IMG/VR virus record: IMGVR_UViG_2579778539_000003
From: a virus
Lineage: Duplodnaviria; Heunggongvirae; Uroviricota; Caudoviricetes
Length of the DNA: 50,145 nt
Direction: 5' to 3' (one strand)
Below are positions 1,401-41,220 of this stretch, piece after piece; positions within the stretch are counted from its first letter, which is position 1, and each line of letters opens with the position of its first letter. The notes below the pieces were generated by a model. That model was not told where the DNA came from and searched no databases. It saw only the letters and a list, made by a program, of their open reading frames with translations. The translations under genes were made by a program, and so were the position numbers.

Positions 1401-1455
1401 GGTGATGCTGCCAACTTACTGATTTAGTGTATGATGGTGTTTTTGAGGTGCTCCA

Positions 1456-1731
1456 GTGGCTTCTGTTTCTATCAGCTGTCCCTCCTGTTCAGCTACTGAC
1501 GGGGTGGTGCGTAACGGCAAAAGCACCGCCGGACATCAGCGCTATCTCTGCTCTCACTGCCGTAAAACATGGCAACTGCAGTTCACTTACACCGCTTCTC
1601 AACCCGGTACGCACCAGAAAATCATTGATATGGCCATGAATGGCGTTGGATGCCGGGCAACTGCCCGCATTATGGGCGTTGGCCTCAACACGATTTTACG
1701 TCACTTAAAAAACTCAGGCCGCAGTCGGTAA
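1456..1731 (+). CDS. insA: IS1 InsA
   Basis: 91-aa [27 protein letters not shown]..., recognisable IS1 InsA. Confidence 0.9.
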
Positions 1732-2153
1732 CCTCGCGCATACAGCCGGGCAGTGACGTCATCGTCTGCGCGGAAATGGACGAACAGTGGGGCTATGTCG
1801 GGGCTAAATCGCGCCAGCGCTGGCTGTTTTACGCGTATGACAGTCTCCGGAAGACGGTTGTTGCGCACGTATTCGGTGAACGCACTATGGCGACGCTGGG
1901 GCGTCTTATGAGCCTGCTGTCACCCTTTGACGTGGTGATATGGATGACGGATGGCTGGCCGCTGTATGAATCCCGCCTGAAGGGAAAGCTGCACGTAATC
2001 AGCAAGCGATATACGCAGCGAATTGAGCGGCATAACCTGAATCTGAGGCAGCACCTGGCACGGCTGGGACGGAAGTCGCTGTCGTTCTCAAAATCGGTGG
2101 AGCTGCATGACAAAGTCATCGGGCATTATCTGAACATAAAACACTATCAATAA
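1650..2153 (+). CDS. insB: IS1 InsB frame (expressed as InsAB' transposase by -1 frameshift in the A-run near 1706-1716)
   Basis: 167-aa ORF overlapping insA 3' end in -1 frame; TTAAAAAACTC slippery region. Confidence 0.85.
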
Positions 2154-2168
2154 GTTGGAGTCATTACC

Positions 2169-3395: not shown

Positions 3396-3986
3396 ATGTC
3401 TCGAATTTTTGCTTACTGTCGGATATCAACGCTGGATCAGACCACCGAAAATCAACGCCGGGAAATCGAAAGTGCAGGTTTTAAAATCAAACCTCAGCAA
3501 ATAATCGAAGAACACATTAGCGGCTCAGCAGCAACCAGTGAGCGTCCTAGTTTTAACCGGTTGCTTGCTCGCCTGAAATGTGGTGATCAATTGATTGTGA
3601 CAAAACTGGATCGCCTTGGTTGTAATGCAATGGATATCAGGAAAACAGTGGAACAACTGACCGAAACAGGTATCAGAGTGCATTGCTTAGCATTGGGGGG
3701 CATTGACTTGACCAGTCCAACAGGAAAAATGATGATGCAAGTAATTTCAGCAGTTGCTGAATTTGAACGAGACCTTTTACTTGAACGCACTCATTCCGGG
3801 ATAGTAAGAGCCCGCGGCGCAGGGAAACGTTTTGGTCGACCACCTGTGTTAAATGAAGAACAGAAACAGGTGGTATTCGAACGAATTAAGTCAGGTGTAA
3901 GTATAAGTGCCATTGCCCGGGAATTCAAAACCTCGCGGCAAACCATTTTAAGAGCCAAAGCAAAACTTCAGACACCTGACATATAA
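3396..3986 (+). CDS. pinQ: Serine DNA invertase (Pin/Gin/Hin/Cin family)
   Basis: 196-aa [23 protein letters not shown]... with catalytic-Ser N-terminal resolvase domain and C-terminal HTH. Confidence 0.9.
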
Positions 3987-4083: not shown

Positions 4084-4659
4084 CTACGGCAGTGCTGGCC
4101 ATTCAATATCCTGTGCAGTTGACGTATCAACACGGTTCAGCAATACCCGATACTTTTTCCATGCTTCCAGCAACGAGATTTCTTCCTCCGTTGCAATTTC
4201 CAGATCTGCAGCATCCTGAAGCGGCGCAATATGCTCACTGGCTACCTGCATCAGGTTGTTTTTTGTTTCTTCCGCCTCCCGGATCCGGAACAGTTTTTCT
4301 GCTTCCGTATCCTTCACCCAGGCTGTGCCGTTCCACTTCTGAAACTCCCCTTCCGGCGATAACCAGGTAACATTTTTCGGTAACGGACCGAGTTCAGAAA
4401 TAAATAACGCGTCGCCGGAAGCCACGTCATAAACCGTTTTACCCCGATGATCTTCAACGAGATGCCACGATGACTCATCACTGTTGAAAACAGCCACGAA
4501 GCCAGCCGGAATATCTGGCGGTGCAATATCGGTACTGTTTGCTGGCAGACCTGTATGAGGCGGAATATATGCATCACCTTCACCAATAAATTCATTAGTT
4601 CCGGCCAGCAGATTATAAATTGTTATGGTCCGTGGTTGTTCACTCATTCTGAATGCCAT
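4084..4659 (-). CDS. tfaQ: Tail fibre assembly chaperone Tfa
   Basis: 191-aa [23 protein letters not shown]...; start ATG overlaps stf true-frame stop (TAATG). Confidence 0.9.
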
Positions 4660-7600
4660 TATGCAAGCCTCACAATATAGTTAAATGCGATGTTTTTGAC
4701 GGTGTTTTCCGCGTTACCAGCAGCGTTAACGGTGATGGTGTGTCCATGTGAGCCAATCGCAACGGAGTGCGTATGAGCACCAATACCGACAGTATGTGCG
4801 TGTGCACCTGCGCTTGCAGAGTACCCGATACAGAGTGCGTATGAGCGCCTGCAGAAGAAGTGTTAACACTGTATTTAGAATAATCAGGTGATCCACTTCC
4901 CGGAGCACCACTGGAACCACCTGAAACAAATGTCATCGAATGGGTATGTGCACCGGCTGAAGCAGCCGTACCGCTAACACTATGGGTATGTGCACCAGTG
5001 TTATTCGTGGATTTAGTGCCGTAATCAAACGATGATGTGGTTTTCGTCCCCAAATCCGTACTGGATGCGCTGGCGCTGTGGGTGTGCGATTTAATGCCGT
5101 CCTGTTCCTGAGACAATACGGCACGACCACTGGCGGGCTTGCCCTTAATCGTCCAGCCACGCATATCAGGAATAACGCCTGACGGATAAGCCACTGCAAG
5201 TTTCGGGTATGCAGATTTGTCAAAAGTCTGCCCCTGCATCAGGGCATAGCCAGACGGAACGGTATCTGATGGCCACGGGATTGGTGCGCCGACTGGGTAG
5301 CTTTCTGGTGGAAGATTTTTCGAGGTATAAACTTCTGCCCAGTCATCCTCAAAACCATAACCGTCTCTTGAAGAACGGTAGAACAGACCACCATTTCTGT
5401 AATGCGCCTTCATCTGCAGGGTCCGGCAACTTCCGACTCCGGTATAGAAGTTAACCAGAATATAGCTGTCGCCAGAGCGAGTGACATTGTAAGCGCCTGA
5501 TTCGGCATTCCATGGAACGCCACCATCCGCATCGGCATATGTATCCGTTGCCCTTCTGGCAAAAGCAGCCACATGCGCGGCGGTTAAAGTAATATCTTTG
5601 GAACCATCAAACTCAACACCAGAAACCCGTCTTGGCGTTTGCAGCTTTGTTGCTGTTAATGCATTACCGTTCAGACTTGCGGACAGTTTGGTTCCAATAA
5701 CCAGTTCGCCGGTTGCGTTATCAATAGCAAACGGTCTTAATGTATTCCAGCCACCATAAACATCACCTTGATTGGTAAGCAGCAGGTAAGTTTTAGCGCC
5801 ATCATTACGCCATAATGCACCATACTCTCCACCTATCATTCGAATCTGATTACCACCACGCGCTACAATTTCGTCTGTGGCAAAAAGTTTTTTGCACGAC
5901 AAGTTATCGTTAACGATTAACGAATGAGACTCATAAAAACCACGCCCACTCTTAAAATCAAGGATAACGTCCGCCGCGATACATTCAGTCGCTGGATTTG
6001 TTGCCCCAAACTTATAGGTCGTATCATTAACAACGAGATCAGCACCAGGTGCGGATATTGACAGGCCATCTTCGATAAACGCAAAAACAGGGAAAGCAGC
6101 GCCATCAACATAGAACACAGAGCGCAAATCATCGCCCTTATTACTCATCATTATTGAGTGGATGGCTCGTTCATTGTTTTGATATTGCCAGAACATTCCA
6201 TAAGCATAACGCCCCCTGTCAGTCCAGCCACCAGGCATAACAAATCCGTTAAACTCGCAGTTATTCATCGGATCGCCTGCGGTTCGCGTTGCCGTGGTGA
6301 TAATGACCCTTGATGCCAGTTCGCTTACTGAGCCAGCAGAACGCATAACAACAACAGGGTAATATTTTCCAGATGTTGCACCTGCAGGAGCGTTAACCCG
6401 CACATAACGCATACCACGCTTATCAGCAAAGTCTGTTTTACTGACCGCGTTAATGTTGTTCAGGAAGCGTCCCTTATCGGGTATATCAGTGCCGTTCTGG
6501 TCTTTCTGCAGACGTTTCTCTGCATTGTCATAGGCTGATTTTACTGCCTTTGGCGTTGCCGCCAGCGTTTCAGACGTACTGTTGGTCGCACTGCTGAGCT
6601 GTACTATCCCCTTTTTCGTCGTGCTCGCATCCTCAAGCGCCACGGCGGATGCAATATCCTCTGCCCGTTTTGCTGCTGTCTCGGCGCGCGTTGCCGCGGA
6701 TTCCGCCGTACTTTTGCTCTGAGCTGCCGCCGTCGCACTGCCAGCTGCCTATGTCGCCTTCGTGGATGCCGTCGTGGCGCTGCCCTTCGCTGCTGACGCC
6801 TGTCTGGTCGCCTCATCTTTTGAAGCAGACGCCGATGATGCCGATGACGCCGCCGAACTGGCGGACGATGCGGCAGCCGTTTTTGAGGATTCTGCGCTGG
6901 TTTCCGACGCTTTCGCGTTCGTTTCGGATGTCTTCGCTGCGGAAGCAGACCTCGCTGCTGCGCTGGCCTGTTCAGTGGCTTCGCCAGCCTTCGTTGTGGC
7001 TGTTGAAGCAGACGATGCGGCGCTTTCTGCCGATTTTCCGGCGGCGGTGGCACTGGCTGAGGCCTGCCCGGCACTTGTTGACGCTGCACTGGCAGACGAC
7101 GCAGCCGCTGTTTTTGAGCCTGCCGCAGCCGAGGCGCTCTGTCCCGCTGCCGTTTCAGAAGACCTGGCGTTCGTCTCGGACGTTTTTGCCGCCTTCGCGG
7201 AAGTTCCTGCCGCTGTTGCCGAGGAGGCTGCACGACTGGCGCTCGAGGCTGCGCTCGTTTCTGATGATTTTGCCGCCTCTTTTGAAGCCGACGCATCCCT
7301 GGCTGAGGTGGCAGCTTCTGACGCTTTCGTGGTCGCGGTGGATGCAGAAGTGGCGGCTGATTGTTCTGACGCTGCCGCATTCGTTTCTGACGTTTTCGCC
7401 GCACCGGCACTGGTAGCCGCCGCGCTTTTTGAGGACTCTGCAGCGGCAGCACTTTTTGAGGCTTCAGTGGCCTTTGTTGATGCCGTTCCTGCGCTGGAAG
7501 ACGCTGACTGAGCCGACGACGCGGCCTGTCCGGCTGACGTGCTGGCTGCACGTGCTGAATCTGCAGCATCAGTCGCACGGGTTGCCGCCTCACTGGCAGA

Positions 7601-8008
7601 TGTGCTGGCATCACTGGCTGACTTCTTTGCGGCTGCCGTGTTCTGTGCCACCACGGACGCGTTACGCGCCACCTCTTCCACCATCAGTTCAAAACGACGC
7701 AGTGCCTCCGGACGGGCATCATCCTCCGTCATGGCACCGAGAAAATCATTCAGCGTACCGGGTTGAGAATCTTCATACACGGTGATGGTCCCGGCATGTG
7801 ACGGCGGGAATCCCTCCACCAACAGAATAACGCTGTACTGACCGTACTCAACGTCCATGCTGTAACGCCCGGCTTCATCCGGATTTTCTGAGGCCAGCGT
7901 GTTCACCACCACAGTGGTACTGTTACGTTTTGCTTTCAGCTGGATTGTGCAGTTCTGTACCGGTTTTCCTGTGCCGTCTTTCAGTACACCTGAAATCTTT
8001 ACTGCCAT
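4659..8008 (-). pseudogene. stf: Side tail fibre Stf (StfR-like, about 1116 codons) disrupted by an in-frame amber (6749-6751) and a 1-nt deletion near 4819-4821
   Basis: ORFs 6749-8014 and 4670-6643 are in the same frame, separated only by TAG; C-terminal 50 codons read out of frame, the other frame gives ...[15 protein letters not shown]...[11 protein letters not shown] ending at TAA 4659-4661. Confidence 0.8.
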
Positions 8009-8018
8009 ATTCACCCCA

Positions 8019-8072: not shown

Positions 8073-8672
8073 TCAGAATTTATAACCGACACCCACGATG
8101 AAACCGTCAGTGCGCCAGTCGCCACTGCCGGAGCCTTCATAAGCAATATCAATGGCCACGGATTCGGTCGGGTTAAACTGCACGCCAGCTCCCCACGCCA
8201 GAGACGTGTTGCTGTGGCGACCGTCATCACTTCCTGTCAGCACATCGTGCGTTTTCCCCGTATTGTCGGTCACCTGCAGATAATCCCCGGAGAAAGTCGA
8301 CACACGGCTGTAAGCCACACCCGCCATCGCATACGCGCTGAACCATTCATTCACGCGCACAGACGGCCCCGCCATCACGCTGAACCAGCGGTTACGCACG
8401 GAATCTTCATGCCAGCGGGTATCGCTGTAATGCGTTTTTTGCTCATCTTCAGCGTTGGCATAACTGAATGACGTAATCAGCCCCAGCGTGTCCGTAAACT
8501 CATAACGGTATTTCACGTTAATCCCGTTCAGATTATCGCTGCCGGGAGCGTTCGTACGGGCATGAAGATACCCTGCGCTCAGTGTGGCCTGCTGCTCAGA
8601 CGCCCATGCAGGCGCACCGGATACGGCCAGACAGATGGCTGTGGACAAAATGGCTGCACAAACTTTACGCAT
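8073..8672 (-). CDS. lom: Lom outer-membrane protein (Ail/Lom family beta-barrel)
   Basis: 199-aa ORF with signal peptide and C-terminal ...GVGYKF; lambda position between J and stf. Confidence 0.9.
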
Positions 8673-8739: not shown

Positions 8740-11700
8740 TCAGCTGATACTGATGCCTGCGGTGGCTTTCTTCATCACCACAACCAGCAAATCGCTGATA
8801 CTTGCTGTGGGATACCAGTCATTTACCAGCCATGCTGACACCGAAAACTCCAGCGTCATGTGGCCGTGACCAGCTGGCATATCAATAACACCACTGTAAA
8901 TCAGCGTATTATCCAGCGCGGTACGGTTATAAATTTCAGCACCATTTTTCTTCACTATCAGGCGGCATGAGGAGTAAATATCAGTATGCTCTCTCTCATG
9001 TTTAGCACCGCTGAATGCCACCGCCGGAATAACAATCTGCCGGTCAAACGGCTGATCGTCATAAATCCTGACGGTAATGGTCCCTGATGGCCACCGCTCC
9101 GGTGCCCGGGAGTCCCGCGGGAAAGCCTTACCCACTGTTTTGACAATATCGCCTTCAATCTGGTTGGCTGACAGTTTCCCTTTAATCTGACAGTTTTCAT
9201 TTATCGTAACGTTGTTGAGCGTCCCGGCGTTCGCATTCACACTGCCACTGATAACTGCATTTTTAGCGGTCAGCTTTCCGTCCGGTGTCAGGGAAAATGC
9301 AGGAGGATTACCGCCGCTGGTAATGGTGGGAGCCGTCAGATATTTCAGGAACACTTCATTCATGAATATCTGATCACCCTGACCAACAAACATCGGTTTT
9401 GTGTTGCCATTTGCAGGATTAATCATCGCAATCCTGTCTGCCGCCAGCAGCACCTGACTCTGCATGCCGTCGGGGGTGTTCTCAATACCGGCACCGATAC
9501 CCGCAATATAAAGGCGTCCGTCCTGCATCTGCTGCAGCTTCACAGCCCACATGCTGTTCAGATTATTATTTGTATCAACCTGAACCTTCTGTATCTGCTG
9601 GATCGCTGCACTCTGGTCTTCCAGTTTCTTATTGACGGTCTGTGTGATTTCATTGCTGACATCCGTAATGGATGTCCTGATTTCAGCCAGGTCAGGCGCA
9701 AGCTGACCGTTATCAATCTGCGTCCACAGCTCCTGAGCCAGATGGGTTTTCCCTATCTCGCCTTTGAAAAAATCCAGATAGCCGGATGCGTCATCACTCG
9801 GCTGACCAACAGCCTCCACGAATGCCGATTTGCCAACGGTGTTCACACTGCGAACGTAAAAATAATAATTATGGCCCGGCCTGATATTGATACTGGCGGC
9901 TATCCAGTACAGCGCCGTGCCAAGATAGCGTGCTGTGGTTTCAACCTGCCTGATATCCGCAATCCGCTTTTCCGAGAACCAGAACTCAAACTGTACCGTC
10001 GGATCATAAACCGCAAGATGCGGCGTGGCGGTTATCTGAAAATAGCCCGGCGTCAGCTCAATCCGCGACGGCGCTGCCGGTGCGGCAATCCGGAACGATA
10101 CCGACGCCGGATCGCCCTGCTGCCCCCACGCATTTACTGCCCGGACTGTCAGCCTGTAGTTCCCCAGAGCCAGTTGTGTGAAGCGGTAAGTGGTTTCCGT
10201 CGTCCGGGCCGTGCTGACCAGCCGCTCACTGCCGTCATCCGCTGCCACGGTCAGGCGAAGCAGGAAGCTCACGCCCTTCACCACCTTCGGCGTGTCCCAG
10301 CGGGCCAGCACCTGGTATTCCCCGCTGTCTGCAGTGACTTCTGCGGTCAGGTGCTGCACCGCTGGCGGCGTGACACCGTTCACCGTGCCACTCTGTTCGC
10401 CGTCAAAGTGCGCCCCGTTATCCACGATGACCTCTTTTTCCGGCACATGCTGCACGGCGGTGATGGCATACGTGCCGTCGTCGTTCTCACGGATACTCAC
10501 GCAGCGGAACAGTCGCTGGCGCAGCCTCGGCAGCTTCAGCCCCCATACGCTGTATTCAGCAACACCGTCAGGAACACGGCTCACTTTCACCTTCACGCCG
10601 TCGGTGACGGACTGAACCTCCACGCTGACCGGATTGCCACTTCCGTCAACCAGGCTTATCAGCGTGGTACCGGAGGATGGCAGCGTGATTTCACGGTCAA
10701 GCGTCAGCGTCCGGGTCAGGCTGTTCACCGCCAGCACACGACCACCGGTGCTGATACCGGCATAGTCATCATCACAGATTTCAATAACATCGCCCGGTAC
10801 ATGGCGAAGCCCTTCCGCACCCACGCTGAAATCCACGGTCTGCGTTTCCAGCAGCTCCGTTTTAATCAGCCACAGCCCGGCTCGGTGTGCCTGCCCCCGG
10901 CTGGTACAGCCAAAGGCATCCATCTTCGTGACATTACGACCGTAACGGGCAATGGCCTGCGTGTCCTCCACAAGCTCTGTCGCCGTCTCCCAGCCGTTAT
11001 CCGGGTCAATCCAGTTCACCTCAACGGCATTATGGCGGTCCTTCAGGGCGCTGAAGCTGTAGCGGAACGGCGCGCCATCATCCGGCATCACCACATTACT
11101 GCGGTTATAGGTCCACACCTTATCCGACGGTCGGTCCTGCACGAACGTCAGCGTCTGCCCGTTCCATACCGGCATACAGCGCATCGCCGAGCAGAAATCA
11201 CTGAGCACATCCCACGCCTTGCGCTGTGTGGTCAGCCAGGCATTACAGGTGATGCGCGGCTCCGTGCTGCCAAAGCCGTCCGGCACCGACTGGTCGCAGT
11301 ACTGGCCGATGACATACAGCGCCCATTTATCCACATCCGCTGCACCAAGACGTTTCCCCATGCCGTAGCGCGGATGGGGCAGCATATCCCACAGACACCA
11401 GGCCATGTTGTTGCTGTATGCCGGTTTAAACGTTCCGTCCCAGATACCGCTGTATTGCCGCGTCTGCGGGTTATAATTCGACGGCACCTGCAGAATACGC
11501 CCGCGCAGATGATAATTACGGCTCACCTGCTGGCTGCCGAACTGCTCCGAGTCCACCTGCACGCCGAACAGTGCCGTGTTCGGGTAGCACTGTTTCACAT
11601 CGATAATTTCGGTGTATGACGACCAGAGCGTTTTGTTCTGCAGCTGGTCTGTGGTGCTGTCCGGCGTCATCCTGCGCATCCGGATACTGAACGGGCGCGG

Positions 11701-12219
11701 CGGCAGGTTATCCACCACCACCGAGGCCAGATACTGTGAAGTGGTTTTACCCTTAATGGTGATGTCTTTTTCCGTCACCCAGCCACCGTTACGTTGTATC
11801 TGAACCAGCAGGTGGACTTCCGATGGATTCCTGTCCCCCTTTGAGGTGGTTTCCACCAGTGCCTGCACGCCGAAAGTAAAACGCAGACGGTCAATGTTTG
11901 CCGACGTGATGGTCCGGGTGATCGGCGTGTCATATTTCACTTCTGTACCGAGCACCGTCTCGGAGCCGGAGGATTCAAATCCCTCCGGCGGTGTCTGCTC
12001 CTGCTCACCGGCCCGGAACACCACCGTGACGCCGGATATATTGGTATTCCCCTCACTGTCCAGCACCGGCGTACTGTTCAGCAGCACGCTTTTTAATCCA
12101 TCCACCGGACCTTCAACCGGCCCTTCGCTGATGGCATCAATCACACTCAGCAGCTGCGTGGACTTCAGGTTGTCCTTCGCTTCGCGCGGGGTATGCCCCT
12201 TACTGCTGCCTTTACCCAT
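8740..12219 (-). CDS. J: Tail tip / host specificity protein J
   Basis: 1159-aa [24 protein letters not shown]...; recognisable lambda gpJ; synteny. Confidence 0.95.
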
Positions 12220-40157: not shown

Positions 40158-40399
40158 TATTCCTCCTACAATCAATGTGCAATTACATTTAAACACACCT
40201 CAATTTGGCCGGACATATAAATATCTAAACCAGAAAAAATCACTTACATAGCGTTACAAACTCTTTAGTCTAAAGGTTCATCGTAAAACATTCCCCATAC
40301 TTATCAGTCCGTTCCGCGCCAGGTAGCTCATTGCCTTATCTGGCAACCTGTAATCAGGTTTCCGCTTTTTCAGTTGGCTGGTCGTTTAACCGACATAGT

Positions 40400-41220
40400 T
40401 AATCCATTAATCTAGTTGCCGGATGTTGGTGGATTTTCGCGTTTTAGTTGTTCATAAAAGTGCACAGCTTTAACCAGTTCTTCTGATGTAACTGGGACTG
40501 GTGAGGCAGTGAATAAGGCCTGAATTTGATAGTTCGGCCTGTCGTTACAATCCTCTTTTTTCGGTACATATTTCCAGTCACCAGACCACTACTTCCCCTG
40601 AAAGTCCGTAACGCCTTTTTTCACGTAGCGATATCGCCATGCCACTGGTTTTGCTTGCCCCGCCGTTTCATGCCCTTCCTGATAATTAATCTCGCTCATT
40701 CATCGCCCCACTCATCACAATATGCTTCGACCGGAGTTTTTCCCGCTTCATAGTCATCACGCTAGGATTCGACATCAGCAGCACTTCCACCGCGTAACTC
40801 ACCATAGTCCATTAATAGTTCATCCCGCTCTTCAAAACTGATGTTATATTTAGCTGAACAAAAATCAGCCACTTTGTTCTTCCTCATCGTCTTTTATTTC
40901 GTGGTATGAGTAATTGCAGTAGTTAAAGAAAATTTCTTATGCTCCGTCATGAATTTCCTCAGGTGTTGCGTCATCGTCCACTTCGAATACATCCTCAAAA
41001 TCTCCACCAGCTATTCCCGTTTCAATAATAATTTTGAACTTTCGCATTTCACTACCGCCCTTTCGGGCGGCCTCCTGATGTTCTGAGGGTGCAGAAATCC
41101 ATCCGGTTAAGGATTAAATTTTATTTACAGAACTGAATTTAATTATTCAGATATACGTATCTGTAGCCTTACGAATCTACTCACTGGATGCCTCTTTCAT
41201 AAAAATAATCCAGTGGGTTT
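40400..41220 (-). pseudogene. Decayed nin-region small ORFs (one about 96-codon frame interrupted by in-frame TAG at 40589-40591)
   Basis: Several short overlapping minus-strand ORFs with weak RBS; ...VTDFQGK*WSGDWKYVPKK... reads through an amber. Confidence 0.3.

Follow-up and report, generated by a model that had tools for sequence, protein, structure and literature searches.

Introduction

In Ur-lambda, residues 1-94 of the side tail fibre protein gpStf form a collar round the gpV/gpM junction and residues 102-393 the proximal rod, followed by a hinge, a distal coiled coil and an OmpC-binding tip (PMC12617516). These side fibres are dispensable for plaque formation by lambda (PMC12617516). 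Lambda PaPa carries a frameshift in stf and makes no side fibres, and it plates normally because J binds LamB (PMC12617516); its stf lesion is the split between orf-401 and orf-314 (Hendrix & Duda 1992, as cited in PMC12617516). Moreover, loss of Stf raises the plaque size of lambda and its spread in soft agar (PMC2762979; PMC3945230).

We analysed an interrupted stf gene in a DNA stretch of 50,145 nucleotides (hereafter, the window), which corresponds to a complete Qin-site lambdoid prophage of E. coli, from a truncated ydfJ to the integrase. A previous annotation made from the letters of the window alone (the sequence-only reading) had drawn attention to a stop codon in this gene.

Results

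The prophage and its late operon

The window is colinear with the ETEC1732 prophage, with 99.8% identity over 48 kb. The late operon has the order J-lom-stf-tfaQ-pinQ; the first four genes are read from the minus strand, and stf and tfaQ meet in a TAATG junction. The J gene (8740-12219, minus strand), encoding the central tail fibre or tail tip protein, is intact (1159 aa), with two private substitutions at the protein level. A lom homologue (8073-8672, minus strand; Ail/Lom outer-membrane protein) is located directly upstream of stf. An intact tail-fibre assembly chaperone of 191 aa is encoded by tfaQ (4084-4659, minus strand), as indicated by Caudo_TAP domains and by the annotation of the relatives, and pinQ (3396-3986, plus strand), encoding a serine invertase, is found downstream of tfaQ.

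Elsewhere in the window, ynfT and the truncated ydfJ are separated by an IS1 of 768 bp with InsA and InsB' ORFs (1401-2168, plus strand). This element is flanked by a 9-bp target-site duplication, CTGGGGCCT, at 1392-1400 and 2169-2177, and the site is empty in ETEC1732, HCP6S3_I2 and VG888-46E9. In relE (around 36553), ETEC1732 has an extra A and is frameshifted, while this base is absent from the window and from HCP6S3_I2 and VG888-46E9, where relE is annotated as intact; the gene also appears intact in the window.

Identity of the interrupted gene

The closest relatives carry stf as a single CDS of 3351 nt (1116 codons plus the stop, i.e. 1116 aa), annotated as "prophage tail fiber N-terminal domain-containing protein" and having one base in common with the tfaQ CDS. 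The stfQ-type pseudogene of the window (4659-8008, minus strand) is 3350 nt long and 99.1-99.3% identical to these relatives at the DNA level. With both lesions described below corrected, its translation (the "repaired" protein, 1116 aa) differs from the intact orthologues by 6-8 residues out of 1116.

Using Pfam, we found in the repaired protein a phage_tail_N domain (PF08400) at residues 1-134 (E = 1e-71, whole profile covered), a Gp34_trimer trimerisation domain at 663-762, a Collar domain at 907-954 and a Phage_fiber repeat near residue 1002. The last 215 residues match the tip of T4 gp37 (PDB 2XGF) up to the final residue (E = 6e-90). A tblastn comparison with lambda gave 81% identity to orf-401 for the N-terminal 352 residues, and 68% identity to orf-314 for the C-terminal 213. 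The gene thus combines the N-terminal domain, the late-operon position and the gp37-like tip of lambda-type side tail fibres, the tip being present at the DNA level, with its last 53 residues out of frame as encoded. Because near-identical intact orthologues and a match to a solved structure are both available, we consider the identity of the gene as settled: judged by homology, it belongs by descent to the StfR/StfQ family of lambda-type side tail fibre genes, and yet it is a pseudogene. The domains, the operon position and the orthologues all agree with the StfR-type side tail fibre gene proposed by the sequence-only reading.

Two lesions in stf

On the minus strand, positions 6751-6749 read TAG, in the context ACG AAG GCG ACA TAG GCA GCT GGC. 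This amber codon (6749-6751, minus strand) is in frame with stf and corresponds to E420* (GAG to TAG), T having replaced G at 6751 (coding strand). When 8008-4660 was translated in one frame, codon 420 was the sole stop and the frame was open elsewhere. The ORFs 6749-8014 and 4670-6643 share this frame (8014-6643 = 1371 = 457 x 3), and the 35 codons between them (6748-6644) are free of stops. Going by this common frame, the two ORFs are one split gene, a chance juxtaposition being excluded since the lesion-repaired stretch of 3.35 kb encodes a near-copy of the uninterrupted stf proteins of 1116 aa. Codon 420 is GAG (Glu) in 4/4 aligned relatives. The minus-strand reading, the frame arithmetic and the translation therefore bear out the initial description of an in-frame TAG splitting the gene, with 35 open codons between two ORFs of one frame, and the aligned relatives confirm the GAG that it had given for the StfR homologue.

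This description had also taken the TAG as the only interruption, which does not hold. Alignment with the relatives revealed a 1-bp deletion (minus strand, between 4820 and 4819, outside homopolymer runs), in which the loss of a G changes GGTACTGCTGCAAGC to GGTACTCTGCAAGC and produces a -1 frameshift at codon 1064. As a result, the 53 C-terminal residues of the normal protein are swapped for 49 out-of-frame residues, and the shifted frame terminates at a TGA (4672-4670). The original TAA stop (4659-4661, minus strand), which overlaps the tfaQ start in the TAATG junction, is no longer reached in frame. The region put out of frame is the gp37-like HxH tip segment, and three conserved HxH motifs are displaced. 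In gp37, HxH motifs bind iron, as seen in the 2XGF structure. Since the normal C-terminus matches the T4 gp37 tip through its last residue, the frameshifted tail removes a conserved structure. The two lesions are 1.9 kb apart; instead of a single uninterrupted frame of about 1116 aa, the gene shows an amber codon at position 420 and a -1 frameshift at codon 1064.

The frame that a ribosome would translate (6749-8008, minus strand) is an N-terminal fragment of 419 aa, which comprises the tail-collar domain and the greater part of the Ala/Ser-rich proximal rod. The downstream remnant (4670-6643, minus strand) is an ORF of 657 aa from a GTG, with its last 49 codons out of frame; it is found in GenBank as ESL22102.1, "hypothetical protein L476_01576 [Escherichia coli BIDMC 39]". 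An exact-protein look-up of the N-terminal fragment (versions of 419 and 421 aa) found neither on record, because gene callers never called it. Where this fragment is omitted, both the GenBank and the Logan annotations of BIDMC 39 have an antisense ORF of 245 aa (6774-7511, plus strand), situated in the Ala/Ser-rich region of stf with its GC-rich codons. By analogy with orf206b opposite orf-401 in lambda, this antisense ORF is probably spurious. The GenBank annotation of BIDMC 39 can be corrected accordingly: the "hypothetical protein" of 657 aa and the antisense ORF of 245 aa stand for one stf pseudogene.

Source strain and occurrence of the lesions

We traced the source of the window with the exact sequence of its J protein, which led to scaffold KI535383.1 of E. 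coli BIDMC 39 (GCA_000492235.1), a clinical (hospital) isolate, and to a Logan assembly of run SRR850824. Over the 22 kb compared, window and scaffold show 100% identity, and both lesions are included. The window is also identical over 20 kb, again with both lesions, to this Logan assembly, the reads of which are possibly the same as those of the GenBank assembly. The sequence-only reading had proposed a check of the reads at codon 420; at the assembly level, the Logan data have TAG and not GAG. A literature search on BIDMC 39 found nothing.

To find carriers of the amber allele, we compared a 61-nt query centred on the TAG with 5,426 complete E. coli genomes, a carrier being defined by a match of at least 99%. 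Among the 2,975 records that matched in these genomes, none reached this threshold. Homologues that end naturally at this point, the case that could have overturned the sequence-only reading, were thus not found (0/2,975 matching records with the TAG 61-mer). Likewise, no exact match to the deletion allele was detected in the 5,426 complete E. coli genomes; 632 records matched the deletion site at 95-99% and, among the matches listed, the span is 62 nt, i.e. the G is kept. Exact 30/31-mers of either lesion gave zero matches in IMG/VR, in GTDB genome contigs and in JGI metagenome contigs, while the control 30-mer with GAG matched at least 120 viral contigs. The GAG codon and the undeleted G are both present in the loci compared (L001-L005, L127 and L128). 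On these comparisons, both lesions are taken as derived, and they are found in one strain only among the genomes searched.

Changes private to the window

We counted the private changes of the window by comparison with ETEC1732, HCP6S3_I2 and VG888-46E9. There are 40 private substitutions, of which 21 fall in one patch of 220 bp and 19 are scattered. The patch is located in stf (6947-7166, minus strand); all of its 21 SNPs match the Rac-type stfR allele (locus L004) and its flanks match Qin-type alleles, which indicates that paralogous side-fibre genes underwent gene conversion over a short tract. Against four relatives, the changes private to the window in stf are a synonymous A-to-C at 6863, the G-to-T at 6751 and the G lost at 4820/4819.

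The 19 scattered SNPs comprise 12 missense, 4 synonymous, 1 nonsense and 2 intergenic changes. For random substitutions in stf, the expected missense-to-synonymous ratio is 2.8:1 and 3.6% of the changes create stops, i.e. about 0.6 nonsense mutation per 17 coding SNPs. The pattern of private SNPs fits an unconstrained (neutral) accumulation of mutations. Three of the 20 private changes are in stf, which represents 7% of the sequence, numbers too small to tell selection from drift.

Disruptions of stf were also observed in close relatives. In HCP6S3_I2 (loci L002/L127), stf has a different frameshift, caused by a 1-bp deletion at the equivalent of window position 7745; in VG888-46E9 (locus L128), it is interrupted by an IS1B insertion, and in TOE3 by an IS3 insertion. 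These knock-outs are independent of those in the window. Among the IMG/VR contigs carrying the GAG allele, about 6-8 of 51 stf genes are disrupted: the usual C-terminus is missing from 8 of the 51 complete stf genes, with a frame break or an insertion seen in 5-6 of the eight. In the same collection, frame breaks in J were found in 3 out of 39 cases. In this small sample (6-8/51 vs. 3/39), there is no clear excess of stf loss over J loss.

Discussion

Origin of the lesions

The stf gene has derived lesions alongside intact close orthologues, and two lesions together with a neutral substitution pattern, as is found in pseudogenes. We conclude that stf of the Qin-site prophage of BIDMC 39 is very probably an ordinary prophage pseudogene with two independent, lineage-specific lesions, most likely acquired by neutral accumulation. 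A G-to-T change would have turned Glu420 into an amber codon and a 1-bp deletion would have frameshifted the last 53 residues, both events being specific to the lineage of the strain. The likeliest cause would be the piling up of neutral mutations in a resident prophage, whose side fibres would be unneeded by the host and dispensable even for the phage. That one or both lesions are artefacts of sequencing, assembly or culture, the natural gene being intact, is very doubtful. The confinement of both lesions to one strain and the origin of the data in a 2013-era draft assembly would agree with artefacts, but the separate Logan assembly of SRR850824 is identical over 20 kb and neither lesion is in a homopolymer. 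In addition, comparison with the three close relatives over 48 kb shows a single private indel, namely the stf deletion, which speaks against an assembly rich in errors. It is unlikely that the assembler produced the lesions, whereas a mutation in the sequenced culture would still be compatible with the agreement of the Logan assembly. Selection deserves more attention, since it accepts the lesions as real and disputes only their neutrality: loss of side fibres might have been favoured in the lysogen, or else in the phage, which would spread more easily in structured habitats when it adsorbs less. Two independent inactivating lesions in stf, in a set of late genes otherwise free of disruptions when compared with ETEC1732, the other knock-outs in close relatives and the rapid rise of lambda stf loss-of-function mutants, which win in soft agar (PMC2762979; PMC3945230), are all in line with this idea. 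However, the rate of stf disruption in IMG/VR is about that of the essential J gene, a second lesion is expected under pure drift once a first knock-out is present, and the spectrum of private SNPs fits neutrality, so that an adaptive knock-out appears unlikely. We similarly find it improbable that the repeated stf knock-outs in natural E. coli prophages, i.e. that of BIDMC 39 and the frameshift, IS1 and IS3 of its relatives, are parallel adaptive events; if they were, the advantage might come from reduced adsorption in the structured habitats of the gut, or from some gain for the lysogen.

The remaining alternatives suppose that a useful fibre is still made, and they meet the same difficulty downstream of codon 420. 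The sequence-only reading had suggested that a supE-type host would read through the TAG. A suppressible amber would have to be the sole defect, and here the frameshift at codon 1064 is a second one: the read-through protein would still be abnormal, with 49 wrong C-terminal residues replacing the conserved gp37-like tip segment of 53 residues. Three conserved HxH motifs of this tip are lost to the frameshifted tail; for this reason, amber suppression alone could not, as predicted from the frame, restore a normal fibre. The TAG is followed by a G, and a purine after a stop codon is permissive for suppression; natural coliforms carrying suppressors have also been reported. On the other hand, no tRNA gene was found within the window, the TAG is conserved in no relative and, since BIDMC 39 is a hospital isolate, the host is not a laboratory suppressor strain. 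A search of the literature yielded no useful report on amber suppressors in natural isolates, and nothing points to a suppressor host. A conditional allele, in which a host amber-suppressor tRNA reads codon 420 and a useful fibre results, is consequently highly improbable. Even less credible is a functional split, either by designed read-through or by the assembly into one fibre of a separate collar/rod protein of 419 aa and a distal protein of 657 aa. The 657-aa ORF is admittedly called as a gene by the GenBank and Logan callers, and its GTG is preceded, at a distance of 13 nt, by a weak AGGA, but the stop is conserved nowhere, the orthologues are single ORFs, and the 657-aa product would combine the absence of a tail-docking domain with a frameshifted tail. 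Programmed read-through of the Q-beta A1 type implies a conserved stop, which was found in 0 of 2,975 records, with no matches in the three contig collections.

We also considered other in-frame stops in the window as a sign of a suppressor host, and this was rejected, the genes concerned having the same pseudogene annotation in three relatives. They are a DUF7167 gene (40865-41047, minus strand), with an internal TAA, and a neighbouring hypothetical gene of the early region (40278-40699, minus strand), with an internal TAG at 40590-40592 and a frameshift. These lesions are older, since both genes are likewise annotated as pseudogenes in ETEC1732, HCP6S3_I2 and VG888-46E9.

Expected consequences and comparison with known side fibre genes

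In BIDMC 39, translation of stf would stop after 419 residues. By homology, the product would keep the tail-docking N-terminal collar and most of the Ala/Ser-rich proximal rod, and would be devoid of the hinge, the distal shaft and the gp37-like receptor-binding tip. Particles, if made, would be PaPa-like, without working side fibres but still with the J fibre, the J gene being intact. The side-fibre gene of this prophage thus seems dead, with no rescue by suppression, and a released phage would adsorb via J alone, like laboratory lambda. This is one more natural case of a known tendency for stf loss, and it matters little beyond annotation: stf of BIDMC 39 is an undescribed instance of a well-known kind, the prophage tail-fibre pseudogene.

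The intact E. coli StfR/StfQ fibres (for instance WP_282835438.1 in ETEC1732 and WP_226473506.1 in HCP30S3_I2), to which the identity values given above apply, have the same neighbours as stf of the window (lom, tfaQ, pinQ, ydfK and ydfJ'). Their genes are uninterrupted, whereas that of the window has E420* and the frameshift at codon 1064. The C-terminal 215 residues of the repaired protein can be aligned from end to end with the T4 gp37 tip (2XGF), HxH repeats included; in the window, however, out-of-frame sequence takes the place of the final 53. Outside the tip, the protein (N-terminal collar and Ala/Ser-rich rod) is of the lambda type and not of the T4 type. Laboratory amber alleles of lambda such as Sam7 resemble the present case by an in-frame TAG in a gene of a lambdoid phage. 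Lambda Sam7 is grown on supF hosts. Alleles of this type have a single lesion and are kept deliberately in suppressor hosts, in contrast to the stf of the window, with its second, non-suppressible lesion and no suppressor in evidence.

By analogy of gene, position and outcome, the orf-401/orf-314 split of lambda PaPa is the closest precedent. It concerns the same gene family at the same position (J-lom-stf-tfa), and each of the two proteins is cut short by one mutation some 400 residues from its start, so that the collar and the proximal rod are left and the receptor-binding part is lost; lambda PaPa is otherwise viable through receptor binding by J. The PaPa lesion is a single frameshift that arose in laboratory stocks and lies near the equivalent of residue 500 of the window protein, whereas the gene of the window, in a prophage of a clinical isolate, combines a nonsense codon at residue 420 with a separate frameshift 1.9 kb downstream.
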